64,000 bases of DNA from Pseudomonadota bacterium (GCA_039193195.1 JBCCWS010000001.1:69338-133337), one strand, 5' to 3'; positions 20,501-57,077 are shown, counted from the stretch's first letter. Translations and numbers: made by a program. The notes: generated from the sequence alone by a model not told the origin.

Positions 20501-20894
20501 GGGTTTCCCCGTGCGCACGACCCATGCCCAGCGCCGCCCCCACTTCGATTATGGGCAACGCCAGACCTTCTGGGATACGCGCTACACGCGTGGTGCCTAT
20601 ACGGCCTTCGGTGACGTGCGCGAGCTGGTGGGTGAGCAGGATGACGCCCTTGCTCTGGTGGGTGCAGGGGAGGAGTTGCACGCTGAGTTTGCCGCGAGCG
20701 CCAGCTTCCCTGGCGAGGGCTGGTCGCGTCGCTATCTGTTGACCACCGCCGGCTGGGCCAAGGACATGGACCTGTACACACGCGACGGCGACTCGGTGGA
20801 CCCTATGCCCCATCGCAGCGACGAGCCCGGTGTTCTCGCCAGGCGCGACGCGCTGCACGCGCGCTTTCACACCCGCCCGCTCTCCGGAAAGTGA
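17550..20894 (+). CDS. Lipoprotein with N-terminal TPR repeats, FG-GAP/VCBS repeats, an ASPIC/UnbV-like segment and a roughly 480-aa uncharacterised C-terminal region
   Basis: Lipobox LLSAC. Repeated DxDxDGDxD calcium-loop motifs (DLNGDGEQDLFL, DFDNDGDVDAYL, DADHDGDVDIFV, DYDGDGAMELLA). UnbV-like GIGTRLALRRGEYWSV. Confidence 0.75.
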   Translation: MMRYRVTIATALLMSAFAVLLSACAGDEGRQDSGLPSEVVALNNRGVGLMGYFDYPGAREVFEQVVASQPEWIDARVNLAIATLNRQQEGDEARADAILQEVLAQAPQHQRAHFVAGLLRLYEGAQSAALIHFQKVAQADPGDAYAAYYTGQLLAVDYPEQALDWFERAIETDPYLRSAYYGASIALRRLRRRDEAVRMQEQYLRLESNPRARLAEFKYTRMGPKANALAVPVRGLSPAESTTAIPEGAAFAAAVPVAPQWQLPESSTLTTADLNGDGEQDLFLSRARTNAAQASASLVLLADGDGWGALADHSLSGIDGVVAAAWADFDNDGDVDAYLCRAGVDQLWYREGDSEWRLQPEQLLGLRLPGDDCRDVAAFDADHDGDVDIFVVGEQANELINNDGDGSFRALGQSQGLAGSGGGRQVLALDIDADRDTDIAVLNAQPPHALFLNDRLWQYRTLQTPAFAEIGARAMSAGDADADGQAELYLLQSASDAVTVLEWEGETFTVQGTAAVAPGMTQLSLGDYDGDGAMELLAAGEEGAVRMDASSLLTDRPSAGLAVTSSAASTLVPVLRDVAAGPGLMTVVDGALQWLGPGDGRHPFASFALVGRASEADAMRSNAAGIGTRLALRRGEYWSVTSTFDGDSSPGQSLQPVSLGLGASAQADFVAIDWSDGVFQTELDLPAGALHRIAETQRQLASCPVLFAWNGEEYAFVTDLLGVGGIGFLLAPGEYSTPRPWERMLLSEAQLSPRRGRLALKLTEPMEEVAYVDQLALHEVLVPPGWQVMLDERHSTDPRRPPSGELRWYRESLRPLGARDGRGHEVLAAVLDRDGVAVPVGVRDTRFLGRLQASQVLTMEFAAALGEQDGRARWLLADGWVEYPYSQTLFAAWQAGVTYEPPSLEVSTDGEHWQLVAARFGYPAGMPRQMALPLHDLPRGARYLRLTGNLEIYWDRLRVALVEPAPTPARVTPLPLQRAVLSQVGFPVRTTHAQRRPHFDYGQRQTFWDTRYTRGAYTAFGDVRELVGEQDDALALVGAGEELHAEFAASASFPGEGWSRRYLLTTAGWAKDMDLYTRDGDSVDPMPHRSDEPGVLARRDALHARFHTRPLSGK

Positions 20895-23656
20895 TGGCGA
20901 GATCGACTAGCAGGGCGCGGCCGCGCCCAGTGATCGGACCGCGCCTTCGCGTACTGCTGCAGGGCGTGTTCGTTCTGTTCGCGCTGCTGGTGGTCAACTC
21001 CGTGTACCTCGCAGGGACCTCCTTGCTCGAGTGGTTGAGTGGGGCCTCGTGGCAGGGCGCCGTGTTCCAGGTGATGTTTCTCGCCCACCTGGTGCTGGGT
21101 GTCGTGCTAATCGCACCGTTTCTGATCTACGCTGTAGTCCACGCGCGCAACGCGTGGCATCGGCCGAATCGCCGCGCCGTAGCCATGGGCCTGGTCTTAA
21201 CCGTGGCCGGCGGCGTTCTCCTGATTACTGGCCTTGTGCTAACCCGCGCCATACCCGGTTTGCCGTTGACCTCACCGGCCCTGCGTCAACCGCTCTACTG
21301 GGTGCACGCCTTGGTGCCGCTACTGGTCGTATGGGCCTTCGTGCTCCACCGTTTGGCAGGGCCTGCGATCGCTTGGCGCCGAGGTGCGGGGGCGTTCGCT
21401 GCGGCGCTGGCTGTCACGCTGGCAGTCGGTACGTGGAACTGGTGGTCCGCGCCGAGCGTCGGGGTGGCGACGGCCGACGATACTGATCGATACCACCTGA
21501 TGCCATCGTTGGCGAAGACTGCCGACGGTCAGCCGATAGGCGTCGAAGCGCTGGTCAACGATCAATACTGCGTCGACTGCCACGCCGACACCCATGAGCG
21601 CTGGGCCGCGAGCGCTCACCGCTTCGCGTCCTTCAACAATCCCGCCTACCGCTTCTCCGTGGCGAATACGCGGGCGGAGATGCTGGCGCGCGACGGCAAC
21701 GTAGAGGGCACGCGCTTCTGCGCTGGCTGTCACGACCCCGCGCCCCTGTTTAGCGGTGCCTTGGAGCAAGCCGACTTCGACCCCGATTCGGTCGCCGGTC
21801 AGGCGGGGATTACGTGCACCGCCTGTCACGCCATTACGAGCATCGACTCCCCGCGCGGCAACGCCGACTACACGATCGGCGCGCCAAGGCACTACCCGTT
21901 CGCGCGCAGCGAGGGTGGGCTCGGCAAGTGGGTCAATCACCTGCTCGTGCGTGCGAACCCGGAGTTTCACCGCCGCACGTTTCTGAAGCCTCTGCACAAG
22001 ACGCCGGAGTTTTGTGGTACCTGCCACAAGGTGCACCTACCCGAAGCGGTGAACGACTACAAGTGGCTGCGCGGGCAGAATCACTACGACACCTGGCTGC
22101 TGAGCGGCGTGTCGGGTCACGGTGTGTCGAGCTTCTACTACCCGCCCGCGGCCAAGCAGTGCAACGACTGCCACCTGGCCCCACTCCCCTCCGATGATTT
22201 CGGTGCGGTGGTGCGGGCCCCGGGCGAGCCGCCCACGGTGCACGATCACCTCATGGCGGCCGCTAACACGGCCTTAGGGCACTGGCTCGACTTCCCAGCG
22301 TGGAGTGAGCAAGCGACGAAAGACATGCTGGTGGGGTCCTTGCGTGCGGATATCTTTGCCGTGCGTGAGGGTGGTGATTTGACGGGCGCGCTGGTGGCGC
22401 CCCTGCGCCCCCAGGTGCCAACCCTGAAGGGCGGTGAGCGCTACCTCTTCGACGTTGTGTTGCGAACGCTAACGCTCGGCCATCCCTTCACCCAAGGCAC
22501 GGCCGACTCGAACCAGGTGTGGGTGGAGGTGCGGGCGAGCCTCGACGGCGTGCCGCTCGCCCACAGTGGCGCACGGGACCCGGGAAGCGGCGAGGTGGAT
22601 CCGGCCGCGCACTTCGTCAACGCCTTCGTCTTGGACCGCCAGGGCCAACGGATCGACGCACGCAACGCGGAAGACATCTTCACGGTGCTATACAACCACC
22701 AGATCCCGCCCGGTGCGGCCGATGTGGTGCACTATGCCCTCGCCCTACCCGAAGGCGCACACGGCACCTTGACCCTCGAGGTAGCGCTCAACTACCGCAA
22801 GTTCGACACTCGTTTCCTGGCCCTCATGAGGGACGACCCCGAGGTAGTGAACGCGCTCCCGATCACCGTCATCGCGCGAGATCAGTTGAGTTTCCCTGTC
22901 TCGGTTGAGGCCGGCGCTGCGCAGGCCCTTTCCGCGCCGGACATCCCGACCTGGCAACGGTGGAACGACTACGGCATCGGCCTGCTGCGCAAGCCCGGAG
23001 TTGGCGAGCTGCGTCAGGCGGAGCAGGCCTTCACTATGGTGGAGCGCCAGGGGCGGGGCGATGGCAGCCTCAACTTGGCACGGGTCTACTTGCGTGAAGG
23101 GCGCGTGGACGCCGCGGCGGACGCCCTGGTGCGCGCCGGGGGCAGCGCCGACGTGATGCCCTGGGTGGTGGCGTGGTTCAACGCGCAGGTCGATCGCCAG
23201 AACGGCTACCTCGATGAGGCGATCACTCAGCTCGAGGCCATCGTCGACACGCGCTTCACGCAGGCGCGTGAGCGCGGCTTCGACTTCGCCTCGGACTATC
23301 GCGTACTCAACGAACTTGCCCTCACCCACTACGAGCGCGCCCGATCACTGCGCGGCGAACGCCAACGGGATCGTCGCGGGGCGGATTTGGAGGCGGCTCG
23401 TCGTTGGTACACGGCCACGCTAGAGTTGGATCCGGAGAATCTAAGTGCGCACTACGGCCTAGCTCAGGTGTTCGCCGCCTTGGGCAAGATGTCTGAAGCC
23501 GACTATCATCGGGCGCAGCATGCGCGGTACAAACCCGACGACAACGCAGCGGACGTGGCCATCGCCGCCGCTCGCCGCGCCTACCCGCAAGCGGCGCGCG
23601 CCGCGGACGACACGGTGATCTACCCGCTGGTAGCGCCACGACAGTCGCGCCGATGA
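20891..23656 (+). CDS. Membrane-anchored multiheme c-type cytochrome (5 CXXCH) fused to C-terminal TPR repeats
   Basis: About 5 N-terminal TM helices carrying conserved His. CVDCH, CAGCH, CTACH, CGTCH and CNDCH lie between 21569 and 22174. TPR-like C-terminal third. Confidence 0.75.
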   Translation: MMARSTSRARPRPVIGPRLRVLLQGVFVLFALLVVNSVYLAGTSLLEWLSGASWQGAVFQVMFLAHLVLGVVLIAPFLIYAVVHARNAWHRPNRRAVAMGLVLTVAGGVLLITGLVLTRAIPGLPLTSPALRQPLYWVHALVPLLVVWAFVLHRLAGPAIAWRRGAGAFAAALAVTLAVGTWNWWSAPSVGVATADDTDRYHLMPSLAKTADGQPIGVEALVNDQYCVDCHADTHERWAASAHRFASFNNPAYRFSVANTRAEMLARDGNVEGTRFCAGCHDPAPLFSGALEQADFDPDSVAGQAGITCTACHAITSIDSPRGNADYTIGAPRHYPFARSEGGLGKWVNHLLVRANPEFHRRTFLKPLHKTPEFCGTCHKVHLPEAVNDYKWLRGQNHYDTWLLSGVSGHGVSSFYYPPAAKQCNDCHLAPLPSDDFGAVVRAPGEPPTVHDHLMAAANTALGHWLDFPAWSEQATKDMLVGSLRADIFAVREGGDLTGALVAPLRPQVPTLKGGERYLFDVVLRTLTLGHPFTQGTADSNQVWVEVRASLDGVPLAHSGARDPGSGEVDPAAHFVNAFVLDRQGQRIDARNAEDIFTVLYNHQIPPGAADVVHYALALPEGAHGTLTLEVALNYRKFDTRFLALMRDDPEVVNALPITVIARDQLSFPVSVEAGAAQALSAPDIPTWQRWNDYGIGLLRKPGVGELRQAEQAFTMVERQGRGDGSLNLARVYLREGRVDAAADALVRAGGSADVMPWVVAWFNAQVDRQNGYLDEAITQLEAIVDTRFTQARERGFDFASDYRVLNELALTHYERARSLRGERQRDRRGADLEAARRWYTATLELDPENLSAHYGLAQVFAALGKMSEADYHRAQHARYKPDDNAADVAIAAARRAYPQAARAADDTVIYPLVAPRQSRR

Positions 23657-25596
23657 GTGACCGACCCCGCCGGCCGAGCCCTAGCGAGGGCGATCGAGTC
23701 ATCGGTCGCGCCCTCAAGATCTCCCTGTTCTTCGCGATGGCCGGAGTTGTGCTTGTGGCGGCGGCTCTGTGGGTGCTGCGAACGCAGACGGGCGGCGACG
23801 TCCTGGTTGGTGATTCGAGTCCAACGCCCGCCCAGCCCGCGGTCGAGGAAACCCGCGCCTCCCGTCCTCGCTTCGTCGATGTCACTGAGGCTGCCGGCAT
23901 CGATGCCCCGCACGCGAGCGGCGCCGCCGGCGAGAGCCTGCTGCCCGAGACCATGGGCGGCGGCGTGGCTTTCTTTGATGCCGACAGCGACGGCGATCCA
24001 GACCTGCTGCTGGTCAACGGGGGCACGCTGCCCGGGGTGGCGCCGGCGTCAACTGCACCGGCACTCACCCTCTACCTAAACGACGGCACTGGGGCCTTCG
24101 CGGCCATGGCGCCTGAGGCGAGCGGACTGATCGGCAGCTTTTACGGCATGGGCGTGGCGACCGGCGACTACGATGGCGATGGACGCATCGACGTCTACGT
24201 GACCGCCGTAGGCCCGAATCGCCTCTACCGCAGTCTCGGCGAGGGGCGCTTCGAGGAAGTCACGGCCACCGCGCAGGTGACCGGCGCCGAAGATGCGTGG
24301 AGCAGCAGCGCGGTCTTCGTGGATATTGATCGTGACAACGACCTGGATTTGTTTGTCGTCAACTACGTGGCTTGGTCTCGGGAGATCGACTTCGAGGTGG
24401 ACTACCGCCTGGCAGGTATCGGCCGCGCCTACGGCCCGCCGACCAACTACCCCGGCAGCGCCAGCTATCTGTTCCGCAACGAAGGTGACGGCAGCTTTAC
24501 CGACGTCTCCGAGGAGGCCGGAGTGGTGGTGCGCAATCCGGCCACCGATGCGCCCAGTGGTAAGGGCCTCGCCGTGCTCGCCATGGACGTCAACGAGGAC
24601 GGCTGGGTCGATCTGCTCGTGGCCAACGACACAGTGGGCAACTACCTGCTCCTCGGCGATGGCGATGGCACCTTTACTGAAGTCGGCACCACGGCAGGGT
24701 TGGCCTTCGACAACACGGGCACGGCAACGGGCGCTATGGGCATGGACGTGGCCTGGTACGACGATGGCCAGACCCTTGGTGTGGCAGTGGGCAATTTCGC
24801 CAACGAGATGTCCTCCTACTATGTGACGGAACTTGCCGCAGCGGCGGCCGGTTCCGCCGAGGTGCACCCAGTGCCCGTGTTCACTGACGAGGCGGCGATC
24901 AGCGGGATCGGCGCGCCGAGTCGGCGTGCCCTCACTTTTGGCCTGCTGTTCTTCGACTATGACCTCGATGGTCACCAGGACCTGCTCCAAGTGAACGGCC
25001 ATGTGGAGGATGAGATCAATGTGGTTCAGCCCAGTCAGCAGTACGCCCAGGCCGCCCAGCTCTTCTGGCGCTGCGCGGCCAGCGACTGCGCGCGGCCTTT
25101 CGTCGCCTTGGAGACGGCGGACCTCGGCGCCCTCGCCCAACCGCGGGTGGGGCGAGGCGCCGCTCATGCCGACATTGACGGGGACGGCGATCTCGACCTT
25201 CTGCTGACGGCGATCGACGATCGCCCACTGCTTCTGCGCAATGACACACCGGGGCCCGATGAGCATTGGCTGCGTGTGCGCCTGCGCGATGAACGCGAGG
25301 GGAGCCAGAATCGCTTCGGCCTAGGAGCCACGGTCACGGTGGTGCTCGAAGACGGCAGTCTGCGTAGGCGCTTGTTGAGTCCCGCGAGATCCTACCTCTC
25401 GCAGGTGGAGACGGTGGCGAGCTTCGGCCTTGGGACAGCCGCGATCGTCAAGTCCGTACAGGTGCGCTGGCCCGATGGTAAAGAGCAGCGTATCGGGCCC
25501 CTAGCGGTGGATGGCGTCTGGGAGATTCGTCGTGGGGACAGCGCCCCTACACGCTACCCAAGCACGGCGGCGGAGGCAGAGTCCGCCACGCCCTAG
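23653..25596 (+). CDS. CRTAC1-family protein (FG-GAP/VCBS repeats plus ASPIC/UnbV domain), N-terminal membrane anchor
   Basis: FDADSDGDPDLLLV, DYDGDGRIDVYV, DIDRDNDLDLFV, DVNEDGWVDLLV, DIDGDGDLDLLL. UnbV-like GLGATVTVVLEDGSLRRRLL...VQVRWPDG. ATGA overlap with the upstream gene. Confidence 0.8.
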   Translation: MSDRPRRPSPSEGDRVIGRALKISLFFAMAGVVLVAAALWVLRTQTGGDVLVGDSSPTPAQPAVEETRASRPRFVDVTEAAGIDAPHASGAAGESLLPETMGGGVAFFDADSDGDPDLLLVNGGTLPGVAPASTAPALTLYLNDGTGAFAAMAPEASGLIGSFYGMGVATGDYDGDGRIDVYVTAVGPNRLYRSLGEGRFEEVTATAQVTGAEDAWSSSAVFVDIDRDNDLDLFVVNYVAWSREIDFEVDYRLAGIGRAYGPPTNYPGSASYLFRNEGDGSFTDVSEEAGVVVRNPATDAPSGKGLAVLAMDVNEDGWVDLLVANDTVGNYLLLGDGDGTFTEVGTTAGLAFDNTGTATGAMGMDVAWYDDGQTLGVAVGNFANEMSSYYVTELAAAAAGSAEVHPVPVFTDEAAISGIGAPSRRALTFGLLFFDYDLDGHQDLLQVNGHVEDEINVVQPSQQYAQAAQLFWRCAASDCARPFVALETADLGALAQPRVGRGAAHADIDGDGDLDLLLTAIDDRPLLLRNDTPGPDEHWLRVRLRDEREGSQNRFGLGATVTVVLEDGSLRRRLLSPARSYLSQVETVASFGLGTAAIVKSVQVRWPDGKEQRIGPLAVDGVWEIRRGDSAPTRYPSTAAEAESATP

Positions 25597-32885: not shown

Positions 32886-34148
32886 ATGAGCGAAGAGATC
32901 AGCGGCCGTTACGTCAGCCGCCTTACGCGAGAGACCCTTGCCTTGGTACTCGCCGGCGGTCGCGGCAGCCGCCTCAAGCACCTCACGATCAACCGAGCCA
33001 AACCGGCCACGCCCTTCGGTGGTAAGTTCCGGATCATCGATTTTCCGCTTTCCAACTGCGTTAACTCTGGGATTAGGCGTATCGGCGTGCTCACGCAGTA
33101 CAAGGCGCATCCCTTGATTCAGCATCTCCAGCGAGGTTGGAGCTTCCTGCGCGGCGAATTCGGTGAGTACCTCGAGCTACTCCCCGCACAGCAGCGCGTG
33201 GACGGATCCTGGTATCAGGGGACGGCCGATGCGGTCTACCAAAACCTGGATATCATTCGCGCGCACAGGCCTACTCACGTGCTCGTGCTGGCCGGCGATC
33301 ACATCTACAAGATGGATTACGGTCCGATGATCGCCCAGCATGTCGAGCGCGAGGCGAAGATCACCGTGGGCTGTATTGAGGTCTCCCTAGAGGAGGCGCG
33401 CGAGTTCGGCGTCATGTCCGTAGACGATGAGCTACGGGTGAAGGCTTTCACGGAGAAGCCCGCGCAGCCGGATCCGATCCCAGGGCGCACGGACACGGCG
33501 CTCGCCTCCATGGGAATCTACGTGTTCGACGCCGATTTCCTCGCGCAGGAGCTGACGGCGGACGCTAAGAACTTCGAGTCCAGCCACGATTTCGGCAAGG
33601 ACATCGTGCCGCGCAACGTGCCCGACGGCACCGTGTGGGCCTACCCCTTCCGTGACGTGAAGACCCGCGCCCAGCACTACTGGCGCGACGTGGGAAATGT
33701 GGATGCGTTCTTCGAAGCCAACCTCGAACTTGTTGGCGTGAACCCGGAGTTGAACCTCTACGATGAGGCTTGGCCCATCTGGACCGAGCAGCGCCAGTCA
33801 CCACCTGCCAAATTTGTGCTCAACGATCCTGAGCGCCAAGGCGTCGCGCTCAACTCGATGGTCTCCGGTGGTTGCATCATCTCCGGCGCGCGCATCGAGC
33901 AGTCCCTGCTGTTCTGGGATGTGCGCGTGGAGTCCTACAGTCGCATCCACCGAGCAGTCATCTTGCCCGGCGTGCGCATCCGTCGGCACTGCCGCCTGAG
34001 CAACTGCGTGATCGACGAGAACGTACAGCTGCCGGAAGGCACGGTGATTGGCGAGGACCCGGAGGCGGATCGCGAGCGGTTCTTCGTCACCAACAAGGGT
34101 GTCGTACTGGTCACGCCGGACATGCTCGGCGACGAACCAAGCGTCTGA
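32886..34148 (+). CDS. glgC: Glucose-1-phosphate adenylyltransferase
   Basis: [42 protein letters not shown]-terminal signature, and a C-terminal left-handed beta-helix region. Confidence 0.95.
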
Positions 34149-47277: not shown

Positions 47278-48180
47278 TCAGGCCCTGCGGGCGGATGCCC
47301 CGAAGTTTGGATCGTAGGGTCCGCCATCGCCGAGCGCGAGATGGCGTGCTCGCACCAGGGGCTTGCGCTGCTCCTTGCGCTCGTTGAGGGACCTGTCCGC
47401 TCGGGTCAGCGCGATGGAGATGTCTTCCTCCTCCTCGAGCCAGGTCGTGCCGATACTGCAGCGGACCGCGGTAGGGCCCGTGCCCGACCTGCGCGGGGCG
47501 GACAAGGTCAGTGAGGTGCACTGCGTTTGTAACGCGTGTTCGAGGCACTGTGCTTCGCCATGCGCGGCGCTGACGACGAAAGCGAACTCATCGCCGCCGA
47601 GACGACCGACTATCCCGTAGTCGCCGATGAGGGCTTCGAGCGCCTCGCTCACGCGCACCAGCGCGCTGTCGCCGACTTCGTAACCGAATCTGTCGTTTAG
47701 TGCCTTAAAATGATCAATATCGACCATGCCAATCAAGCAGCTTTGCGTGGAGCGGCGCTCGCTATGTAGGCGCGCGACGGCGGTAAAGAAACCTCGTCGG
47801 TTATAGGTACCGGTGAGTGGATCGGTGGTCGATAGGTGAAGCGCCAGGGCCAGCGTGTTGTCCAGATGCCCCAACAGGCGCACGATCAGCAGCGTGGCCG
47901 CGGGTGCTACCACCGCCGGTATCAGACCGGCTAGGGCGAAGGCGAAGCGGGTATCTTGTGTGGTGAAGGCCCCGGCACGAATCTGGGCAGCGAGGCCCAC
48001 CGCCGTAAGGGCCTCGGACATCACGATCGAGAAGACCGTCACGCAGGCGATGATGCCGCCGCCGCCAACATCGCGGTACACGCTCAGGAGGCGGCTATTC
48101 AGCCTATCGAGGGTCAGTTCGTGGTCTTCTTGGGTCACGCTACTCTCCACCCCGTAAGTCGCGAGGCGAGAGGCTGGCAC
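47278..48180 (-). CDS. Membrane-anchored diguanylate cyclase (intact GGDEF, no RxxD I-site)
   Basis: N-terminal TM helices. LTGTYNRRGFF and GRLGGDEFAFVV. Confidence 0.85.
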   Translation of the reverse strand: MPASRLATYGVESSVTQEDHELTLDRLNSRLLSVYRDVGGGGIIACVTVFSIVMSEALTAVGLAAQIRAGAFTTQDTRFAFALAGLIPAVVAPAATLLIVRLLGHLDNTLALALHLSTTDPLTGTYNRRGFFTAVARLHSERRSTQSCLIGMVDIDHFKALNDRFGYEVGDSALVRVSEALEALIGDYGIVGRLGGDEFAFVVSAAHGEAQCLEHALQTQCTSLTLSAPRRSGTGPTAVRCSIGTTWLEEEEDISIALTRADRSLNERKEQRKPLVRARHLALGDGGPYDPNFGASARRA

Positions 48181-48367: not shown

Positions 48368-49588
48368 TCAGGATGCGCAAACCTGCACGGTCTCGCCGAT
48401 GTCGTTGAGGATATGTCGCAGGTGGTCGTAGTCCGGATGGCGAACGCGCATCCAGGCGCCGGCCATGTAGCCACCCTCGACGGAACCTGCGGGCGCTCCG
48501 GGGCTCGGGATGTTCGCGGCCACAATGTCGTTATGGTAGCGCTTGCCGATTTCATCGAGACCCTCCACGTGGGTGACGCGGCCGTCGCGGTCGGCGCGCA
48601 GGGCGATCATGCCGCAGGCGAAGCGACGCGAGGGTCGCTGTACGGTGCGCCCGTGACAGACGGCCATGGCCCAGTCGCGGTACAGATCGATGTCGTTGCC
48701 CGCGTTGTACACATCCCACTGACACACGCCCGGTGGCCGGCAGCCGATCTCTGAGAACTTAAGCCCCTTCGGCCCGATGAACCACTCCATGTGGGTGGCG
48801 GCCGTGGGGATGCCGAGCACGTCGATGACCTTTTGCGCCATCGCTTTGACCTCACTGTACCCCTCCGCGTCCACTCGGTTGGTGGCCACCATCTGGGGTG
48901 AGATCCAGCGCGTGCGCATGGCCTCGAGCACGTTCGGGTAGTAGTGGGTGATGAACTCGTAGGCGATCTGACCGTTCACGGTGATGGTGTCGAGGAAGCC
49001 CTCGTGGCCTTCGATGAACTCTTCTACCGCTGTCGGCGCGCCGCGGTCGACGCCGCTCTCGCTGATCGCCACCTTGAGCTCTTCATTGGTACGGGCCTTC
49101 CAGGTGCCGGCCGCGCCGGCCGCGGCACGCGGCTTCAGGATCACCGGCAGGCCGACCTCGTCGACGAAGTCACGCACTTCCTCGGCGGAGCTGGCGCCGG
49201 TGGAGAGGGCGCAGGGCACGCCGGCAGCCCGCAGCACTTCCTTCATCGCGGGCTTATCGCGGCAGAGGTAAGCGGTGCGCGCGGAGACGCCCGGGATGCC
49301 GCAGCGTTCACGGACGTTCGCCGCGGCCTCCACGTGGGCTTCCACGGTCGCTTCCAAGCGATCGACCCAGAGGCGACTCTGCACGTTGCGCACCGCCTCC
49401 TCGAGCTGACGCTCGTTCACTACCGAGCCGATCTGCACGTAATCGAACAGCCAGCTCGAGAGCTGCGGATCGAGCCAGTCTCGCGGACGTTCGCCGATGC
49501 CGATCACCGTGGCGCCGGCGGCGTGCAGGCCGCGCACGAACTCGCGCTGGTTGGCAGGGAAACAGGGTTCGACGAAGATCACGTTCAT
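48368..49588 (-). CDS. ATP-grasp domain ligase (carboxylate-amine/thiol ligase superfamily)
   Basis: Pre-ATP-grasp Rossmann-like N-terminus. Central CRDKPAMKEVLRAAGVPCA...LPVILKPRAAAGAAG...VEEFIEG...EIGCRPPG pattern typical of ATP-grasp enzymes. Confidence 0.8.
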   Translation of the reverse strand: MNVIFVEPCFPANQREFVRGLHAAGATVIGIGERPRDWLDPQLSSWLFDYVQIGSVVNERQLEEAVRNVQSRLWVDRLEATVEAHVEAAANVRERCGIPGVSARTAYLCRDKPAMKEVLRAAGVPCALSTGASSAEEVRDFVDEVGLPVILKPRAAAGAAGTWKARTNEELKVAISESGVDRGAPTAVEEFIEGHEGFLDTITVNGQIAYEFITHYYPNVLEAMRTRWISPQMVATNRVDAEGYSEVKAMAQKVIDVLGIPTAATHMEWFIGPKGLKFSEIGCRPPGVCQWDVYNAGNDIDLYRDWAMAVCHGRTVQRPSRRFACGMIALRADRDGRVTHVEGLDEIGKRYHNDIVAANIPSPGAPAGSVEGGYMAGAWMRVRHPDYDHLRHILNDIGETVQVCAS

Positions 49589-49626
49589 GGCGTCACCACA
49601 GCGGATGCTGATTGAGTTAGCGGAAG

Positions 49627-51120
49627 TTATAGGTTGCGCATGCGCGCGTAGACGTGGAGGTACTCGCGGGCGCGGCGGGGCCAGCTGAAGTCAGCGCGCA
49701 TGCCGTTGTCCATCATCTTGCGCCAGTGGTTGGGCTGGCGCCAAAGGCTCAGGGCCCGCTCGATGGCCCAGATCACGCCCCCCGAGTCGAAGTGGTCGAA
49801 GACGATGCCGTTGCCTTCGCCGGAGCCGGTGTCGTACTGCTCCACCGTGTCGGCGAGCCCGCCCGTGCGCCGCACGATGGGGATGGTGCCGTAGTTCAGG
49901 CTGTACATCTGGTTCAGGCCGCAGGGCTCGTAGCGCGAGGGCATGAGGAACATGTCGGCCCCCGCCTCGATGAGGTGGGCGAGGCGCTCGTTGTAGCCTC
50001 GGTAGAAGCAGACGCGGCCTGGGTAACGGCTTTGGAGGCTCGCGAAGAACTCCTCGTACTTGCCCTCGCCGCTGCCGAGCACGGTCACCTTCATCGGGTG
50101 GCGCTCCAGCAGGTGGGGCAGGGAATCGAAGAGGATCTCGAGGCCTTTCTGGTAGGTGAGGCGCGTGACCATGCCGAGCACGGGGGTCTTCTCATCCACC
50201 GTCGGGTTGCCGCTGCTGATGCCGAGCGCTTGCAGCAGCGCTACCTTGTTGTCGGCCTTGCCGGCGGGTGCGTCCGCGGAGTAGGGCTGCTCGAGGTGCT
50301 CGTCTTCCTCCGGGCTCCACACCTCCGTATCGATACCGTTCAGGATGCCGACGAAGGTGGCGTGGCGCGCGCGCAGCATATCGTCGAGGCCTTCGCCATG
50401 CTCGGGCGTTTGTACCTCCCGGGCGTAGGTCGGGCTCACCGTCGTGAGTGCGTGGGCGTGCAAGACGCCGGTCTTCAGGAAGGACATGACCCCGCGCCCC
50501 AGGTCCTCCTGATGCACCTGGTTTCGGTGTTCGCTCAGCCCGACGTCTACCACTGCCTGCTCGCCGAACCAGCCCTGGTAGGCCATGTTATGGATCGTGA
50601 GCAGGGAGCGTGTCCGATAGAACAGGCTGTCCCAAGCGAACAATGTTCTCAGGTAGAGCGGGATTAGGCCGGTCTGCCAGTCGTGGCAGTGGACCACGTC
50701 CGGGTCGAAGCCCATGCGTTGGCAGCACTGCAGCGCCACGTGCGAGAGCACGGCGAAGCGCAGGTGCTCGTCGACGTCGTTGGTGTACAGGGCGCCGCGG
50801 TGGTAGAGCACGGGGCAGTCGATCAGGTAGATCCACAGGCCTGAGCCCGGCAGGGGCACCGTGTACACGTTGCAGATGTAGTCGTGGGGGCCGAGTTGCA
50901 CGCGCAGGTTTTGCAAGAACTCCACTGGCACGAAGTAGGCCTGGCTACGATCGATCGTGTCGTACAGCGGCATGAAGATGCGCTGCTCGACACCTAGGTC
51001 GTGTAGGTGCCGCGGCAGGGCCGCCGCCACATCGCCGAGCCCGCCCGCCTTGGCAAAGGGGGCGAGCTCAGAGGTGACGTGAACGACGCGCAAGGTGGCG
51101 TCGCGGTTCTCCTCGCTCAT
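49627..51120 (-). CDS. glgA: Glycogen synthase (ADP-glucose type, GT5)
   Basis: VVHVTSELAPFAKAGGLGDVAAALP N-terminal signature and C-terminal LMPSRYEPCGLNQMYSLNYGTIPIVRRTGGLADTV. Confidence 0.95.
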   Translation of the reverse strand: MSEENRDATLRVVHVTSELAPFAKAGGLGDVAAALPRHLHDLGVEQRIFMPLYDTIDRSQAYFVPVEFLQNLRVQLGPHDYICNVYTVPLPGSGLWIYLIDCPVLYHRGALYTNDVDEHLRFAVLSHVALQCCQRMGFDPDVVHCHDWQTGLIPLYLRTLFAWDSLFYRTRSLLTIHNMAYQGWFGEQAVVDVGLSEHRNQVHQEDLGRGVMSFLKTGVLHAHALTTVSPTYAREVQTPEHGEGLDDMLRARHATFVGILNGIDTEVWSPEEDEHLEQPYSADAPAGKADNKVALLQALGISSGNPTVDEKTPVLGMVTRLTYQKGLEILFDSLPHLLERHPMKVTVLGSGEGKYEEFFASLQSRYPGRVCFYRGYNERLAHLIEAGADMFLMPSRYEPCGLNQMYSLNYGTIPIVRRTGGLADTVEQYDTGSGEGNGIVFDHFDSGGVIWAIERALSLWRQPNHWRKMMDNGMRADFSWPRRAREYLHVYARMRNL

Positions 51121-51124
51121 CGCG

Positions 51125-52366
51125 TCAGGCCGCGCCGCCTTCCTCGGCGAGGTAGTGCTGGATGCGGTTCCAGAACAGCTCCGTGAACTCCTCGTGCTCG
51201 TGCTCGGGGAACAGGGCCTTCACCTTCTGGTTCACCGCGTCCCGCGCCATCGGCGAGGAGAAGAACTCGGCCGCCACTTCATCTAGGTGGGAAAGGTGCT
51301 TGTCGCAGAATTCCTCGAAGCGGTCGGTTTCGAAGCGCAGGCGGGCAATCTTGGCGTAGGCGCGCAGGCGCTCGCGGTAGGGCAGATCCTGCTCGGCGAT
51401 CTTGTAGTAGGGATCGAAGTTCAGGTTCGAGTGAAAGCGACGATCCGTCGCCGCGCAGAAGATCGACCAGCGAAGGTTGGCCTTGATCAGCCACGGGAAG
51501 TGGTAGTGCAGGGAGGTGACCTGCGAGTCCGGGCAGGCGTTGGCGTAGTCGATCGGATGCCACACGGTGCCCTGGCGCAGGGCCTCGCAGCTGTTGAAGT
51601 CCCAGCCAAAGAAGCTGTTGATCGTGAGCGTCATGTCTTCGAGGAGCGAGGCGTCCTCGGCGCTCAGGAAGTCGTGATCCATCGTGTAGCGGTCGTGCAG
51701 GGGAGCACTCGGCGCGTAGTTCACCAGGCGGATCTGCGGCCCCAGGCCCACGGCGCGGATGTAGAAGTCATGCGGGAGCACGGCCTTTTGCACGTTCATC
51801 ACCGTCTTGCCGCTCGCGTCGTAGGCGGCCCGCAGCTGCTCCGAGTTGTCGGCCTTGGTCACGCCCACCCAGCCGCCGCCGTGGTACGGCTTCATGAAGA
51901 CGGGGTAGCCGATTTGCTCGCCGATCTCATCGAGGTCGAAAAGCTTGGCGTAGCGTCCCAGGGTGACGTCCAGGTCTGCCGAGGATTCGTACTCCTTAGC
52001 CGGGATCATCCAGGTACGGGGCACGGGGAGCCCTAAGCGCATCATGGCGCAGTAGGTGGTCTGCTTCTCCATCGACTGCAGCGACCAGGGATTGTTGTAT
52101 ACGTAGAGGTCATCGAGGATCACGGACTTCTTGATCCACTCGCGGGTGGGCGAATACCAGTGCGTGAGGCGATCGATCACTACCTCATACCTGCAGGGCT
52201 GCTGCAGATCGAAGGGTTCGATGGTCACCCGCTCGCTCTCGAAGCGCAGCGTGTCGCCCCCCATGGGCACGCGCAGGTCGAGGCGCTGCAGAATCTCCTC
52301 GTAGCAAATCGGCCAGCACACGTCGGCCCCGAGCGAGAGCCCAATCAGTCTCGTTACCTCAGCCAC
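51125..52366 (-). CDS. ATP-grasp-like protein (RimK/glutathione-synthetase-like fold, divergent) with a C-terminal helical extension
   Basis: EKQTTYCAMMRLGLPVPRTW...GYPVFMKPYHGGGWVGV...NVQKAV resembles the ATP-grasp central/ATP-binding segments. 4 nt upstream of glgA. The family assignment is tentative. Confidence 0.6.
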   Translation of the reverse strand: MAEVTRLIGLSLGADVCWPICYEEILQRLDLRVPMGGDTLRFESERVTIEPFDLQQPCRYEVVIDRLTHWYSPTREWIKKSVILDDLYVYNNPWSLQSMEKQTTYCAMMRLGLPVPRTWMIPAKEYESSADLDVTLGRYAKLFDLDEIGEQIGYPVFMKPYHGGGWVGVTKADNSEQLRAAYDASGKTVMNVQKAVLPHDFYIRAVGLGPQIRLVNYAPSAPLHDRYTMDHDFLSAEDASLLEDMTLTINSFFGWDFNSCEALRQGTVWHPIDYANACPDSQVTSLHYHFPWLIKANLRWSIFCAATDRRFHSNLNFDPYYKIAEQDLPYRERLRAYAKIARLRFETDRFEEFCDKHLSHLDEVAAEFFSSPMARDAVNQKVKALFPEHEHEEFTELFWNRIQHYLAEEGGAA

Positions 52367-52430
52367 GTTCGTCTCCCCATAGCCATTGATGCCGGCGCCG
52401 CAGTCCCCCGCGTGCGCCGCGAAGTGTCCG

Positions 52431-53594
52431 TTACTCGTAGGTCATCCAGAGGGGCCCGGGGAACAGCCAGCTGAGCGCGTCCTGCAGGCGGTCGCGCCAG
52501 TTCTCCCAGTTGTGGCCGTCTCGCACCTCACGGTAGCGGATGTCCGGCCCCTTGTCCTGCAAGAACGCGATCATGGCGCGGTTCTCGCGGATCAGAGATT
52601 CGTAGACCCCACAACTGATGAACATGCGGTCGGCCGGCAGCCCTGGGGCCGCGCGCCACTCGTTCATGAAGCGGACCACAGGGTCGAACACTTCGCCGCG
52701 ATCGTGGTGGCCGATGTCCGTAAAGGCGAAGGAGCCCGACTGCAGCAGCAAGTTGCCGAAGACGCCGGGGTGGCGCCATGCGCAGTAGAGCGAGGCCACG
52801 CCGCCGAAGCTCGCGCCCATCAGCGCGCGGGCGTTGGGCGTATCGCGCAGGGGCAGGCGTGAGGTGAGCGTCGGCACGAGTTCCTCGGCGACGAAGCGTG
52901 CGTGGCGGTCGTCAGCAGCGTACTCGCGCAGGCGATCTGGCGAATGGGTCAGCGCCACAATCATCGGCTCGATCTCGAGGCGATGGGTCAGGTTATCGAG
53001 CACCGCGTGCAGATCGGCAAAGCGCAGAAAGTCATCGCCGTCGTGCACCACCAGCAGCGGGTACTGGCGGCTGCGCCGAAAGCGTGCCGGCAGGTAGAGG
53101 CGGACGCGACGGGTGTCGCCGAAGGCGCCGGAGGCGATGCCGATCTCCTCCAACGAGCCGTGGCGAGACTCGGCGTTGGGAATGGACCAGTCGGGCCGCT
53201 CGTAGCCGTGCGCCTGGCAAACCGAGTTGGCGCCGAACGGGTCTTCGGCCAGCCGCGGGTTCAGCGGATCGAGGATCCAGCGCGTGCCGCCCTCTTCCTG
53301 CTCGAGTTCGATCTTGTACTCGACGCGTGAGCCCGGGGGCAGGTCCATTCGCACCCACCAAAGCTCCGTGCCATCGATTGCGTGCAGGGGCTCCGCATGC
53401 GGGAGACCGAAGCCGAAGTGGCGCAGACGCACGGCCTTGGCGCGACCTCGGAAGAGGAAGGTGACGCCGAGGGGGTCGCTGACCGGCCATTCGTGCTCGG
53501 CGATGAAGGCGTCGAGGCGCTCGGGACTTGGGTTGCCATCGGCCAGTAAGGGCACGAGGAAGTCAGGCGGGGCCACCGCGTCCGATGGGCTCAT
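52431..53594 (-). CDS. Esterase (esterase D / enterochelin-esterase-type alpha/beta hydrolase) with an N-terminal E-set/CBM48-like domain
   Basis: N-domain pattern VTFLFRGRAKAVRLRHFGF...GTELWWVRMDLPPGSRVEYKIEL...WILDPLNP. Catalytic domain YPLLVVHDG, GASFGG nucleophile elbow, and a C-terminal DGHNW His context. Confidence 0.75.
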   Translation of the reverse strand: MSPSDAVAPPDFLVPLLADGNPSPERLDAFIAEHEWPVSDPLGVTFLFRGRAKAVRLRHFGFGLPHAEPLHAIDGTELWWVRMDLPPGSRVEYKIELEQEEGGTRWILDPLNPRLAEDPFGANSVCQAHGYERPDWSIPNAESRHGSLEEIGIASGAFGDTRRVRLYLPARFRRSRQYPLLVVHDGDDFLRFADLHAVLDNLTHRLEIEPMIVALTHSPDRLREYAADDRHARFVAEELVPTLTSRLPLRDTPNARALMGASFGGVASLYCAWRHPGVFGNLLLQSGSFAFTDIGHHDRGEVFDPVVRFMNEWRAAPGLPADRMFISCGVYESLIRENRAMIAFLQDKGPDIRYREVRDGHNWENWRDRLQDALSWLFPGPLWMTYE

Positions 53595-54529
53595 GCGGGC
53601 GTCTCCATCGTGGCGGTAGTGAGCGTGCCCCGCGCGTGCAGTCGCTGGCAGGCGTCGATCGACTGCCAGCCGTCGTCGTTGCCGAGGATGCGCGAGCCGG
53701 CATCCAGGGTGATGGCCGGATCCGGACCGAAGCGGCGCGCCATTAGGGCTACGCGTTCTGGGTCGTTCAAGCGCAGGCGCTCGCGCGCGTGAGGTAGGGG
53801 CAGCAGCGCGGGCAGCAGGTCTAGGCCGGCGTCGAGCACTTCGGCGTAGCCTGGACCTTGGGGAGGCGAGTCATGGAATAGCACGATGCGTCGCGAGAGC
53901 GCCATGGCGCCCGCAGACCACGCGATGATCGGCTTGCGGGCGATGATCTCGCCGAGGCCGAACAGGCGCAGTCGGCCGATGAGCGTGCTGACGTGACCGC
54001 CGGCCACGAGTACCGCCGCGGCGCGATCGACCTGTTCGGCGACTCGCTCGCGGACAGGAGCCAAGCTTGGGTGGCGACCGGGAGCCCAGGTCTGATCGAA
54101 GGCTGCATGAACGTCTTTGATGTGCCGCAGGTGTTGGCGGTCTAGGGTGCGCAGCGAGTTGATCGCCGCACGCCGTTCGCGTTGCACGATTTGTGCGTCG
54201 CCCTTGGCGCCGAGCATCTCCACTGCGGCGGCGGCGGCGTGGTTCAGCCGTCTGCGGTAGAGCGCCTGCAGCAGCCGAAGCTTGTCTTGACGGGCGCGGT
54301 GCGCGCGGAACAGCTCGGGATCGGCGCTGAACGCGTCGTTGACGGCCTTGTACAGACCAAGATCGGTGCAGGGTCGACCGATATGGCCGACCAAGTCGTC
54401 CAACTCTCCCTCGCGCTCCTGCCAGCCGGCGGTCACCGCGCACACGGCCCCGTCGATGGCGAGGACATCGAGAGTCTCAGCCAAGTTGGGTACGTGTCTT
54501 TGGGGGCCGAGTACGGCGATAGGGGGCAT
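53591..54529 (-). CDS. Peptidase S51-like (PepE/cyanophycinase-type, type-1 glutamine-amidotransferase-like fold) hydrolase with a roughly 100-aa helical insert
   Basis: VLVAGGHVSTLIGRL ... PIIAWSAGAMAL (GxSAG nucleophile context) ... LLPLPHA. ATGA overlap with the esterase gene. Confidence 0.65.
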   Translation of the reverse strand: MPPIAVLGPQRHVPNLAETLDVLAIDGAVCAVTAGWQEREGELDDLVGHIGRPCTDLGLYKAVNDAFSADPELFRAHRARQDKLRLLQALYRRRLNHAAAAAVEMLGAKGDAQIVQRERRAAINSLRTLDRQHLRHIKDVHAAFDQTWAPGRHPSLAPVRERVAEQVDRAAAVLVAGGHVSTLIGRLRLFGLGEIIARKPIIAWSAGAMALSRRIVLFHDSPPQGPGYAEVLDAGLDLLPALLPLPHARERLRLNDPERVALMARRFGPDPAITLDAGSRILGNDDGWQSIDACQRLHARGTLTTATMETPA

Positions 54530-54717
54530 GGCGAGGCGGCGATTTTAGCGATGAAAGGGAGGCGAGGCTGGCTCGCCACAAACCGGGCAGGCGCGATGGT
54601 AGGGGCGAGCTCGGGCAGCGGTCAAACCGCCGTCGAGGCCATGGCATACTCGCCCTCCCGTGGCTTCTCGGTGCTCGAGTGCAGCCGCGCTGAACCGCCG
54701 TCGCCTGGAGCCGACCC

Positions 54718-56028
54718 TTGAACCTAGCAACCCTATTGTCTCGCGCCGTAGTCATCCTGCTGGGCGTTCTGCTCTGCGCCGATCCTGCTCGCGCCTGTGA
54801 CGCCGACAACGGTGGTATCGCCCTGCCCGAGGGCTTTTGCGCCACGGTCTTCGCCGATGAGGCGGGACGCGCCCGGCGTCTGGTCGCAGCACCGAACGGC
54901 GTGGTTTACGTGGCCAATCAGAGCCGCGATGGCGATGGGATCATTGCGCTGCAAGACGTCGACGGCGACGGTAGGGCAGACCGGCGCGCGAGCTTCGCGG
55001 CTCCCGGTGGCGGTGGCTTAGGACTGCGCGGAGACTGGCTGTACTACGGTCTGGACGATCGCATCGTACGCTACGCCCTGCCGCCGGCCGGGGAGCTGGT
55101 GCCCGAAGCCAAGGCAGAGGTGGTCGTTAGTGGCTTTCCGAGCCAGCGTCAGCACGCCACCAAGACGTTCGCCTTCGACGGCGAAGGAAATCTCTTCGTC
55201 AATGTTGGGGCGCCCTCCAACGCATGCCAGCGCGAAATGCGCGAGGCCGGGTCGCCGGGGCTAGATCCCTGCCCTCAGTTGGCGCGCCAAGGCGGTGTCT
55301 GGCGCTTCAACGCGGATCGGCTGGGTCAAACTCAGGAGCGGCACGGCGAGCGCTACGCGAGCGGCATTCGAAACGCCGTGGCGATCACATGGGACGGTGT
55401 GGGCGATCGCCTCTACGTGGTCCAACACGGGCGCGACCAGCTCGCCGAGCTATGGCCGCAGAGGTTCACCGACGCGCAGCGCGCTGAGCTCCCCGCCGAG
55501 GAGCTATTCGCCGTCAAGCGCGGCGATGACTTCGGTTGGCCCTATTGCTACTACGACCCGATGGCGCAAGCTAAGCGCTTAGCGCCAGAGTACGGGGGGG
55601 ATGGGAAAGCGGTGGGTCGCTGCGAGGAGGCTGAGGCACCGGTCGTCGCTTTCCCGGCGCATTGGGCGCCAAACGACATCGTGTTCTACCACGGCGATCA
55701 ATTTCCGCCTGCCTACCGAGGGGGAGCTTTCGTCGCGTTTCACGGTTCCTGGAATCGCCAGCCCTTCGCGCAGCAGGGCTTCCGCGTGACCTTCGTGGCC
55801 GCCGACGAGGTTGGCCTGGCATCGTCTTACGATGACTTTGCCACCGGCTTCATCGGGCGCGAGGGCATCACCTCCCCGGGGCAAGCCCGCCATCGTCCAG
55901 CCGGCTTGGCGATCGACCGGGATGGCGCGCTATACATTGCCGATTCGACGGGAGGGCGCATTTGGCGCGTTACCTACAGCGCCAGTGCGAAGGCAGCCCT
56001 TCGCGGCCACGGCGAGGGCCGCCAGTGA
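54718..56028 (+). CDS. Periplasmic PQQ-dependent sugar (glucose/sorbosone) dehydrogenase-like beta-propeller protein
   Basis: Signal peptide with a TTG start. Motifs FVNVGAPSNAC, GIRNAVAITWD, GDDFGWPYCYYD and HRPAGLAIDRDGALYIADS are typical of soluble aldose sugar dehydrogenases. Confidence 0.75.
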   Translation: MNLATLLSRAVVILLGVLLCADPARACDADNGGIALPEGFCATVFADEAGRARRLVAAPNGVVYVANQSRDGDGIIALQDVDGDGRADRRASFAAPGGGGLGLRGDWLYYGLDDRIVRYALPPAGELVPEAKAEVVVSGFPSQRQHATKTFAFDGEGNLFVNVGAPSNACQREMREAGSPGLDPCPQLARQGGVWRFNADRLGQTQERHGERYASGIRNAVAITWDGVGDRLYVVQHGRDQLAELWPQRFTDAQRAELPAEELFAVKRGDDFGWPYCYYDPMAQAKRLAPEYGGDGKAVGRCEEAEAPVVAFPAHWAPNDIVFYHGDQFPPAYRGGAFVAFHGSWNRQPFAQQGFRVTFVAADEVGLASSYDDFATGFIGREGITSPGQARHRPAGLAIDRDGALYIADSTGGRIWRVTYSASAKAALRGHGEGRQ

Positions 56029-57077
56029 CCGCCGTTGGCAGCTTCTTCAGCGATAACGAGGCCACGGTGGCTGCGCCGATCATGCAGGCACTGCAGGCGG
56101 TAAACGCAGATGCCGTGCACTCCTACGGCGATGATCCCACCACCGCCGCCCTCGAGGCACGCCTGCGCGAGTGGTTCGAACGTGACGATCTGCAGGTGTT
56201 CCCGGTGGTCACGGGCACTGCCGCGAACTCCCTCGCTGCCGCTCAGCTGGTACCTCCCTACGGCGCGCTCTACTGCCAGCAGCACGCGCACGTCAATACG
56301 GACGAGTGCGGTGCGCCGGAGTTCTTTACGGCGGGCGCCAAGCTCATCGGGATCGAAGGCGAGCACGGCAAGATCGACGCTGGCGCCTTCGCTCGCGTCC
56401 TGTCGACGGCGGGCGACCTTGGCGTTCACGAGGTGCGGCCTTGTGCCCTCACCCTGACGCAGGGCACGGAGCTCGGCACCGTGTACACGCGCCAAGAGGT
56501 GCAGGCTCTGGCCGACCTGGCCCACGACCGCGACCTCAGCGTTCACATGGACGGGGCACGCTTCGCCAACGCCTTGGTGCACCTGGGTTGCAAGCCCGCG
56601 GACATCACCTGGCGCGCCGGCATCGACATGCTGTCCCTTGGCGCCACTAAAAACGGTGCCATGGCGGCGGAGGCGCTGATCACCTTCGGCAGCGAACAAC
56701 ATGGTGAGGCGCTCGCCTTCCGTCGCAAGCGTGCGGGGCACCTACTGTCTAAGCAACGCTACGTATCCGCCCAGTTGCTGGCTTGGCTGGAAAACGACCT
56801 GTGGCGAGATTTGGCGGGGCGTGCCAACCGTGGTGCCCAGCGCCTAAGTGCGGGCCTGCAGCGCCTCGCGCAGGTCGAGGTGGCCCACCCGACCCAGATC
56901 AACGAGGTCTTCGTGGTGATGCCCCCGGCGCTCGTGGCGGGGCTGCACGAGCAGGGCTTCGGCTTTTACGACTGGCCGGGTGGTCTAGCGAATCTGCACC
57001 GCCTGGTGGTGCGGTGGGATACGCCCGACGAGCATATCGAGGCGCTACTCGACAGCGCGCGGCGGCTCACGAACTGA
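56025..57077 (+). CDS. ltaE: Low-specificity L-threonine aldolase (PLP-dependent beta-eliminating lyase family)
   Basis: FFSDNEATVAAPIMQAL, YGDDPTT, VTGTAANSLA, DGARFANAL, and SLGATKNGAMAAEA (PLP Lys context). The GTG start overlaps the upstream TGA (GTGA). Confidence 0.85.
   Translation: MTAVGSFFSDNEATVAAPIMQALQAVNADAVHSYGDDPTTAALEARLREWFERDDLQVFPVVTGTAANSLAAAQLVPPYGALYCQQHAHVNTDECGAPEFFTAGAKLIGIEGEHGKIDAGAFARVLSTAGDLGVHEVRPCALTLTQGTELGTVYTRQEVQALADLAHDRDLSVHMDGARFANALVHLGCKPADITWRAGIDMLSLGATKNGAMAAEALITFGSEQHGEALAFRRKRAGHLLSKQRYVSAQLLAWLENDLWRDLAGRANRGAQRLSAGLQRLAQVEVAHPTQINEVFVVMPPALVAGLHEQGFGFYDWPGGLANLHRLVVRWDTPDEHIEALLDSARRLTN

Follow-up and report, generated by a model that had tools for sequence, protein, structure and literature searches.

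The sugar contacts of the family 48 carbohydrate-binding module (CBM48) of AMPK-β1 are W100, K126, W133, L146, and T148, and each Gly/Ala mutation of these residues markedly decreased glycogen binding (PMC2642990). In family CBM20, site 1 is composed of Trp543, Lys578, and Trp590, and site 2 includes Trp563 (PMC9920598). CBM48 domains fused to CE1 esterases pack on the catalytic domain, where they line the groove of the active site; made separately, they bound neither starch nor ten other glycans, and those of DmCE1B and its homologues form a dimer contact (PMC8040265). An E-set/CBM48-like module ahead of a PF00756 esterase has precedents in both Fes and the CBM48-CE1 esterases, and the domain itself is ordinary. 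We analyzed a domain of this type in an esterase encoded on a 64,000-nucleotide stretch of DNA from a Pseudomonadota bacterium (GCA_039193195.1 JBCCWS010000001.1:69338-133337; the whole stretch is hereafter called the window). An earlier note had placed this domain at 53205–53477 and had preferred to read the protein as a glucan-targeting esterase of a glgA operon. The range, read on the minus strand, corresponds exactly to residues 40–130 of the esterase, and VTFLFRGRAKAVRLRHFGF, DGTELWWVRMDLPPGSRVEYKIEL, and WILDPLNP were all found in the protein.

Residues approximately 38–127 are the ancestral N-terminal module (N-domain) of the Fes/CBM48-CE1 branch of PF00756 esterases. The reading that we favor, and that we hold to be somewhat better than an even bet, is that this E-set module of the lineage is a fixed wall of the catalytic cleft and that the esterase cleaves an ester-containing product or intermediate of ATP-grasp ligases. 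The N-domain is probably not an autonomous glycogen anchor, and glucan targeting by the esterase is possible but unsupported, as judged from its residues and its relatives.

Domain organization of the esterase

The Pfam profile PF00756 matched residues 155–376 of the esterase (E=4.4e-25; 89.3 bits against a cut-off of 22). The nucleophile motif G-A-S262-F-G and His361 were invariant in 85 esterase orthologs, and the protein therefore combines the profile match, the G-x-S-x-G nucleophile, and the catalytic His of a PF00756 serine esterase. No obvious signal peptide was seen at the N-terminus when the sequence was read by eye, without a prediction tool, and the esterase was taken as cytoplasmic for this reason. 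On sequence grounds, we regard the enzyme as a cytoplasmic serine esterase (Ser262, His361). An identical protein sequence in a metagenome-assembled genome (MAG) at NCBI is labeled "alpha/beta hydrolase-fold protein," and JGI labels the relatives as "enterochelin esterase family" proteins.

The AlphaFold2 (AF2) models of the full protein and of residues 1–140 had predicted local distance difference test (pLDDT) values of 90.2 and 90.4, respectively, and both contained a β-sandwich at residues 38–127, preceded by two short helices. Together with the Foldseek results, these models give the N-domain the size and fold of a CBM48 (approximately 100 residues, E-set/starch-binding-domain fold). The fold assigned in the earlier note was correct, as indicated by the confident AF2 model, the Foldseek matches, and a profile resemblance well above chance.

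We compared the isolated N-domain with PDB structures using Foldseek. The CBM48 of AMPK-β2 (4YEE) was matched with E=5.7e-5, a template modeling score (TM) on the target of 0.75–0.81, and a root-mean-square deviation of 2.1 Å over 85 columns, and the Fes N-domain was matched with E=8.6e-5 and a TM on the query of 0.62–0.64 over approximately 150 columns. The greater query coverage of the Fes matches may include the two N-terminal helices. SEX4, branching-enzyme, and CE1-appended CBM48 domains ranked after these two. These results indicate that AMPK-β CBM48 and the Fes N-domain tie in the structure search and that the ambiguity between CBM48 and Fes, which had been pointed out from the sequence, is real.

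In regards to the sequence profiles, the Fes-type N-domain family Enterochelin_N (PF11806) was detected at residues 44–132 of the full protein (19.9 bits, E=1.2e-3) and in the isolated domain (22.1 bits, E=2.7e-4), in both cases below the gathering score of 27.1. This family was the top Pfam match in 20/20 orthologous N-domains (best E, 1.3e-7) and is a precomputed annotation in about half of the relatives. CBM_20 (PF00686) also matched 20/20 orthologous N-domains (best E, 1.8e-3), and CBM_48 (PF02922) matched 8/20 (best E, 3e-3), with no CBM_48 match to the window esterase even at E≤10. The Pfam score for CBM_20 was 14.2 bits against a cut-off of 23.3. All of the CBM_48 and CBM_20 matches were below the gathering thresholds, and the domain thus does not reach the curated threshold for CBM48.

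Profile alignments were made with hhalign against AMPK-β1 and Fes sequences that were exact PDB chains and a glucoamylase sequence confirmed over residues 52–91, which span the aligned stretch. The best whole-domain match was the Fes N-domain (82.5% probability, E=1e-5, 78 columns), and the value for AMPK-β1 CBM48 was 34.7% (E=4e-4, 64 columns). The match to the glucoamylase starch-binding domain (95.3%, E=2e-8) was local and covered 37 columns only; it brings LW..LP.G..EYKF..W..DP into register and leaves the W543 region unaligned, so that a full-length CBM20 match retaining W543, K578, and W590 was not obtained. The full-length AF2 model superposed on Fes with a TM of 0.68–0.74 over approximately 390 columns (24% identity) and on the CBM48-CE1 esterases with a lower TM of 0.54–0.57, which indicates a Fes-like packing of the two domains. 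In the Pfam architecture, the N-domain is directly N-terminal to the PF00756 domain. The earlier note had proposed profiles and structure prediction to discriminate CBM48 from the Fes N-domain; the sequence profile placed the whole domain nearest the Fes N-domain, and the structure search did not separate the two. The N-domain is homologous to the Fes N-domain and to CBM48/CBM20 modules and is intermediate between both in sequence: it is starch-binding-domain-like in its compactness and motifs and Fes-like in its whole-domain profile and packing.

Residues at the sugar-binding positions

We scored residue conservation in the 85 esterase orthologs and transferred the AMPK, Fes, and glucoamylase positions by hhalign. 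The position of the first sugar-stacking Trp of site 1 (AMPK-β1 W100, glucoamylase W543) is occupied by Leu64, which was Leu in 83/85 orthologs. Lys94, at the position of AMPK K126 and glucoamylase K578, lies on an invariant S-R-x-E-Y-K strand and is Cys in Fes. Position 106, which corresponds to AMPK W133 and glucoamylase W590, was Trp in 49 orthologs, Leu in 35, and Tyr in 1, and is Ala in Fes. Trp79, at the site 2 position Trp563, was invariant; this residue is not diagnostic because Fes also carries Trp there. The invariant polar strand of the N-domain consists of R90, E92, Y93, and K94, and the domain closes with an invariant segment containing D-P-x-N (Asn112) and D-P-F-G-x-N-S (Asn123). 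Thus, the residue check that the earlier note had proposed gave a mixed picture: Lys94 and the Asn residues are retained in all orthologs, whereas the first stacking Trp is replaced by Leu in nearly all of them and the second is Trp in 49 of the 85. The N-domain does not conserve the full set of two stacking Trp residues and Lys of CBM48 site 1, with the qualification that the alignment of loop 60–65 is uncertain.

At position 106, the loci linked to glgA carried Leu 23 times, Trp 9 times, and Tyr once, and the loci without glgA carried Trp 40 times and Leu 12 times, a comparison that is confounded by phylogeny. The trend runs opposite to what retention of Trp106 for glucan stacking would predict, with Leu being more common in the glgA-linked loci, and thus does not support such retention. 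The Trp/Leu dimorphism follows the type of locus, with Leu occurring mostly in Woeseiaceae-type glgA loci and Trp mostly where glgA is not nearby.

Gene module around the esterase

In the window, five minus-strand genes encoding an S51-like hydrolase, the esterase, the ATP-grasp ligase AG1, glgA, and a second ATP-grasp enzyme, AG2 (48368–54529), appear to form an operon (Table 1). We mapped the neighbors of the esterase by tblastn in 80 species-level loci from four phyla (orthologs 57–64% identical), which were sampled from Steroidobacteraceae, Woeseiaceae, other Gammaproteobacteria, Myxococcota, Planctomycetota, and Acidobacteriota. The linkage statistics span ±10 kb; half of the loci end at contig ends, and full 10-kb flanks were available in 40.

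In 72/72 loci with upstream DNA, the S51-like gene immediately preceded the esterase, and AG1 was present in 65/69 loci, immediately downstream in 57. EST2, a second PF00756 esterase of 243 residues without the N-domain, was found in 54/80 loci; PDB and NCBIfam searches with EST2 gave no match. In the 40 loci with full flanks, AG2 was present in 25, its paralogue AG3 in 26, and glgA in 22. These neighbor frequencies indicate that the obligate partners of the esterase are the S51-like hydrolase and ATP-grasp ligases. The gene glgA is a frequent neighbor, far above chance, yet not a constant one. The premise of a glgA operon needs qualification accordingly, as glgA is a less regular companion of the esterase than the S51-like gene and AG1.

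The common order of the module is [AG4], S51-like, esterase, AG1, EST2, [AG3 on the opposite strand], glgA, AG2, [X515], and [malQ/glgC]; the copy in the window is without EST2, AG3, and X515. AG2 followed glgA directly in 22/25 testable loci, including a Planctomycetota locus (L022) with an inverted gene order. The Woeseiaceae-type loci carry X515 as an extra BesA/PGM1-like ATP-grasp gene. In Myxococcota and several other loci, AG2/AG3 lie beside the S51-like, esterase, and AG1 genes, and glgA was not in the fetched flanks. Literature searches for this gene combination found no description of it; the module is apparently undescribed and cytoplasmic, and it occurs in four phyla.

The stop codon of the S51-like gene overlaps the esterase start by 4 bp. 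When aligned to peptidase E, the S51-like protein of the window has the SAG nucleophile and the PHA His. AG1 was 60–86% identical across phyla, and its profile gave generic ATP-grasp matches only among PDB sequences (D-Ala-D-Ala ligase, VanA, and cyanophycin synthetase 2-like) at residues approximately 140–230, which did not point to a particular function.

Function of the N-domain

In the reading that we favor, the N-domain is most likely fixed against the α/β-hydrolase domain and would be one wall of the substrate cleft, by analogy with its solved relatives. The R90, E92, Y93, and K94 strand and the DP-x-N/DPFG-x-NS segment would help to hold the substrate. Because the partners in the module are ATP-grasp ligases, the substrate is most likely an ester-containing ligase product or intermediate, and the S51-like hydrolase and EST2 may act on the same compound. 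The lack of conservation of the canonical site 1 aromatic pair, taken with the decreased glycogen binding of the AMPK mutants, counts for this reading. It is further favored by the superposition on Fes as a two-domain unit, the whole-domain profile match to the Fes N-domain, the CE1 precedent, the gene linkage, and the lack of an obvious signal peptide. Several observations weigh against it. The N-domain is more starch-module-like than that of Fes, as it is without the insert of the latter and carries Lys94, Asn112, and Asn123 without exception among the orthologs and Trp106 in 58% of them; when its profile was searched against all PDB sequences, the sole match was the starch-binding domain of Aspergillus niger glucoamylase (E=0.0037). 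Position 60, which shares its loop with L64, is Trp or Phe throughout, and this aromatic residue could stand in for the absent Trp if the alignment of loop 60–65, where the AF2 confidence is lower, were shifted. Furthermore, 55% of the fully flanked loci have glgA at a distance of no more than 10 kb, against approximately 0.5% expected (an estimate for a single-copy gene in a 4–5 Mb genome); the linkage recurs in Gammaproteobacteria, Planctomycetota, and a "Deltaproteobacteria" MAG with differing gene orders, and locus L053 has ATP-grasp genes inside a glgA-malQ-glgC run. These points would fit a working α-glucan module that docks the esterase on glycogen, from which it would remove ester substituents such as aminoacyl or peptidyl groups that the ligases would have attached. 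The top Foldseek matches are cyclodextrin-bound structures of AMPK-β2 CBM48, the LW..LP.G..EYK..W..DP motif is shared with the glucoamylase domain in the hhalign alignment, Lys94 and Asn123 are invariant, and the window protein has Trp106. VanA-type D-Ala-D-lactate ligases are among the nearest PDB matches of AG1, and ATP-grasp enzymes are able to form esters. Nevertheless, we consider docking on glycogen rather unlikely: Leu stands at the W100 position in 98% of the orthologs and at the W133 position in 41% of all orthologs and 23/33 glgA-linked loci, the CBM48-esterase fusions tested to date bind no starch, and many genomes, such as the Myxococcota loci, have the S51-like, esterase, and AG1 genes and AG2/AG3 without glgA within 10 kb. 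We know of no ester-decorated bacterial glycogen, and literature searches did not find one. The CE1 precedent makes a CBM48-like fold the default architecture of this esterase lineage and hence no evidence of glucan targeting. Consequently, the preference of the earlier note for a glucan-targeting esterase as the likelier reading is unsupported, given Leu64, the frequent Leu at position 106 of the orthologs, and this precedent.

The N-domain might instead be mainly a protein-protein or oligomerization surface that docks the esterase to the S51-like hydrolase or AG1, which we judge improbable. The overlapping S51-like and esterase genes are translationally coupled and were adjacent wherever upstream DNA exists, the CBM48 domains of DmCE1B and its homologues form a dimer contact, and many invariant charged residues (R90, E92, and K94) lie on one strand, but substrate binding explains the invariant polar residues equally well. 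A true siderophore (enterobactin-type) esterase, that is, a Fes/IroD orthologue whose N-domain has the function of that of Fes, is very unlikely. Fes is the best PDB match of the esterase by sequence (E=3.3e-19) and by structure. However, the NCBIfam equivalog NF007758 scored 117.9 bits against a cut-off of 222 and matched residues 107–378 only, the identity to Fes is as low as 24%, and the genes that constantly accompany the esterase encode the S51-like hydrolase and ATP-grasp enzymes. No ent/fep/iro, TonB-receptor, nonribosomal peptide synthetase, or catecholate-synthesis families were found among the scanned window genes or the called genes of five related loci; the 80 further loci were screened solely for module and glycogen genes. 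We rejected the siderophore esterase on the basis of the equivalog score below the cut-off and the gene context.

Putative operon and neighboring genes

The features of the operon are summarized in Table 1. No terminator-like site was found on the operon strand within the five genes, and the scanned window genes flanking the operon have no relation to siderophores or glycogen.

Table 1. Features of the esterase and its operon in the window.
Feature	Position	Strand	Basis or remark
Candidate sigma-70-like promoter upstream of the S51-like gene	54596..54625	minus	Sole match on the operon strand; weak (1 vs 0.8 expected)
S51-like (type 1 glutamine amidotransferase-like) hydrolase	53591..54529	minus	Pfam PF03575, E=3e-7
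Esterase open reading frame (ORF), 387 aa	52431..53594	minus	
Two short helices ahead of the sandwich, residues 11–32	53499..53564	minus	DSSP on both AF2 models
E-set (CBM48/Fes-N-like) β-sandwich, residues 38–127	53214..53483	minus	AF2, Foldseek, Pfam, hhalign
Leu64	53403..53405	minus	W100/W543 position
Trp79	53358..53360	minus	Trp563 position (CBM20 site 2)
Lys94	53313..53315	minus	K126/K578 position
Trp106	53277..53279	minus	W133/W590 position
Domain-closing segment with Asn112 and Asn123	53226..53261	minus	Ortholog alignment
α/β-Hydrolase catalytic domain (PF00756), residues ~145–387	52434..53162	minus	Pfam, Fes alignment, ortholog invariance, Foldseek
AG1, divergent ATP-grasp ligase, 413 aa	51125..52366	minus	Pfam/NCBIfam, profile searches
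glgA, ADP-glucose-type glycogen synthase	49627..51120	minus	TIGR02095, 530 bits (cut-off 328); NF001899, 481 bits (cut-off 459)
AG2, L-amino-acid-ligase-type ATP-grasp, directly after glgA	48368..49588	minus	BacD and L-amino acid ligase PDB matches

Glycogen genes were observed near the module in several arrangements. In the window, a distance of 14 kb separates glgC (32886–34148, plus strand) from glgA. In L003 and L005, the two closest relatives, glgC converges directly on AG2, and the window has a GGDEF diguanylate cyclase gene (47278–48180, minus strand) in that place. The run in L053 (14430–21122) has the order glgA-AG2-X515-malQ-glgC, and the ATP-grasp genes AG2 and X515 are also within or directly beside glycogen genes in L008, L014, L015, and L021. 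In several Steroidobacteraceae loci, malQ converges on AG2.

The S51-like orthologs share the nucleophile motif A-W-S-A-G-A. The His at the position of the catalytic His of peptidase E (LPHA) is replaced in L045 (FPDP) and L032 (LPAA), and some S51-like copies may not be active peptidases for this reason. In L001 (14275–16269; L007 is the same contig), AG1 and EST2 read as one 664-aa ORF, an unconfirmed fusion in a single long-read MAG; AG1 and EST2 are separate genes in 44 other loci. In this locus, the esterase is separated from AG1 by a group II intron reverse transcriptase and a DDE transposase.

Upstream of the module in L001 and L004 (0–7 kb), phaR adjoins an S9 peptidase gene that diverges from the S51-like gene, and in L004 phaE and a phaC-like hydrolase gene are also beside the S9 peptidase. 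A polyphosphate kinase gene lies near the module in L002 (17078–17137). On the plus strand of the window, a glucose/sorbosone dehydrogenase-like ORF (54718–56028) and a β-eliminating lyase ORF (55962–57077) overlap by 67 bp, and the start of the lyase probably lies further downstream than the ORF call; the same lyase family occurs upstream of the module in L003. At 17550–25596 (plus strand), large FG-GAP/ASPIC-repeat proteins are encoded in a run that flanks a 921-aa protein, whose matches to MtrC/MtrF-like and cytochrome c554 families are faint and sub-threshold.

Significance of the gene module

A CBM48-like fold alone should not count as evidence of glycogen targeting. The gene module is a more interesting lead than the domain, as it combines an S51-like hydrolase, two esterases, and several ATP-grasp enzymes of the amino-acid-ligase type, occurs in soil and sediment Gammaproteobacteria, Myxococcota, Planctomycetota, and Acidobacteriota, and is joined to glgA in about half of the fully sampled genomes. 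Its product would point to a peptide or depsipeptide pathway that is new or, with lower probability, to a modified storage polysaccharide. It is a long shot that the S51-like hydrolase, the two esterases, three to five ATP-grasp ligases, and glgA, with malQ/glgC in some genomes, make and recycle a decorated storage glucan. The ligases would then esterify amino acids or short peptides to glycogen, and the N-domain would guide the esterase for their removal. If true, such a glucan would store carbon and nitrogen together, as no reserve described so far is known to do.

Comparison with known systems

The window N-domain has the same fold as AMPK-β CBM48 (1Z0M and 4YEE) and the CBM20 of A. niger glucoamylase (1AC0), shares with them the LW..LP.G..EYK..W..DP motif, and has the Lys, one site 1 Trp, and the CBM20 site 2 Trp in register. 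It differs from them in that the first site 1 Trp (W100/W543) is Leu and the second is variable among orthologs.

The CBM48-CE1 feruloyl and acetyl-xylan esterases (DmCE1B, 7B5V/7B6B; wtsFae1A/B, 6RZO/6RZN; and Bacint_01039, 6NE9) likewise place a compact CBM48-type sandwich immediately before an esterase of the same superfamily, and the full-length model matched them in Foldseek with E of approximately 1e-22. In contrast to the window esterase, these enzymes are secreted, encoded in polysaccharide-utilization loci, and active on xylan; they are 18–21% identical to it and differ in domain orientation.

In regards to Fes (2B20, 3C87, and 3MGA; N-domain family PF11806), the N-domain of this enzyme contains an insert of approximately 30 residues that is absent from the window esterase, Cys and Ala occupy the positions of Lys94 and Trp106, the identity is just 24%, and its siderophore gene context was not found around the window esterase. 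In other respects, the two proteins are alike: in each, an N-terminal E-set sandwich precedes a PF00756 domain with a similar placement of the domains, and they share the DPLNP motif, the Trp79 equivalent, and a cytoplasmic location.

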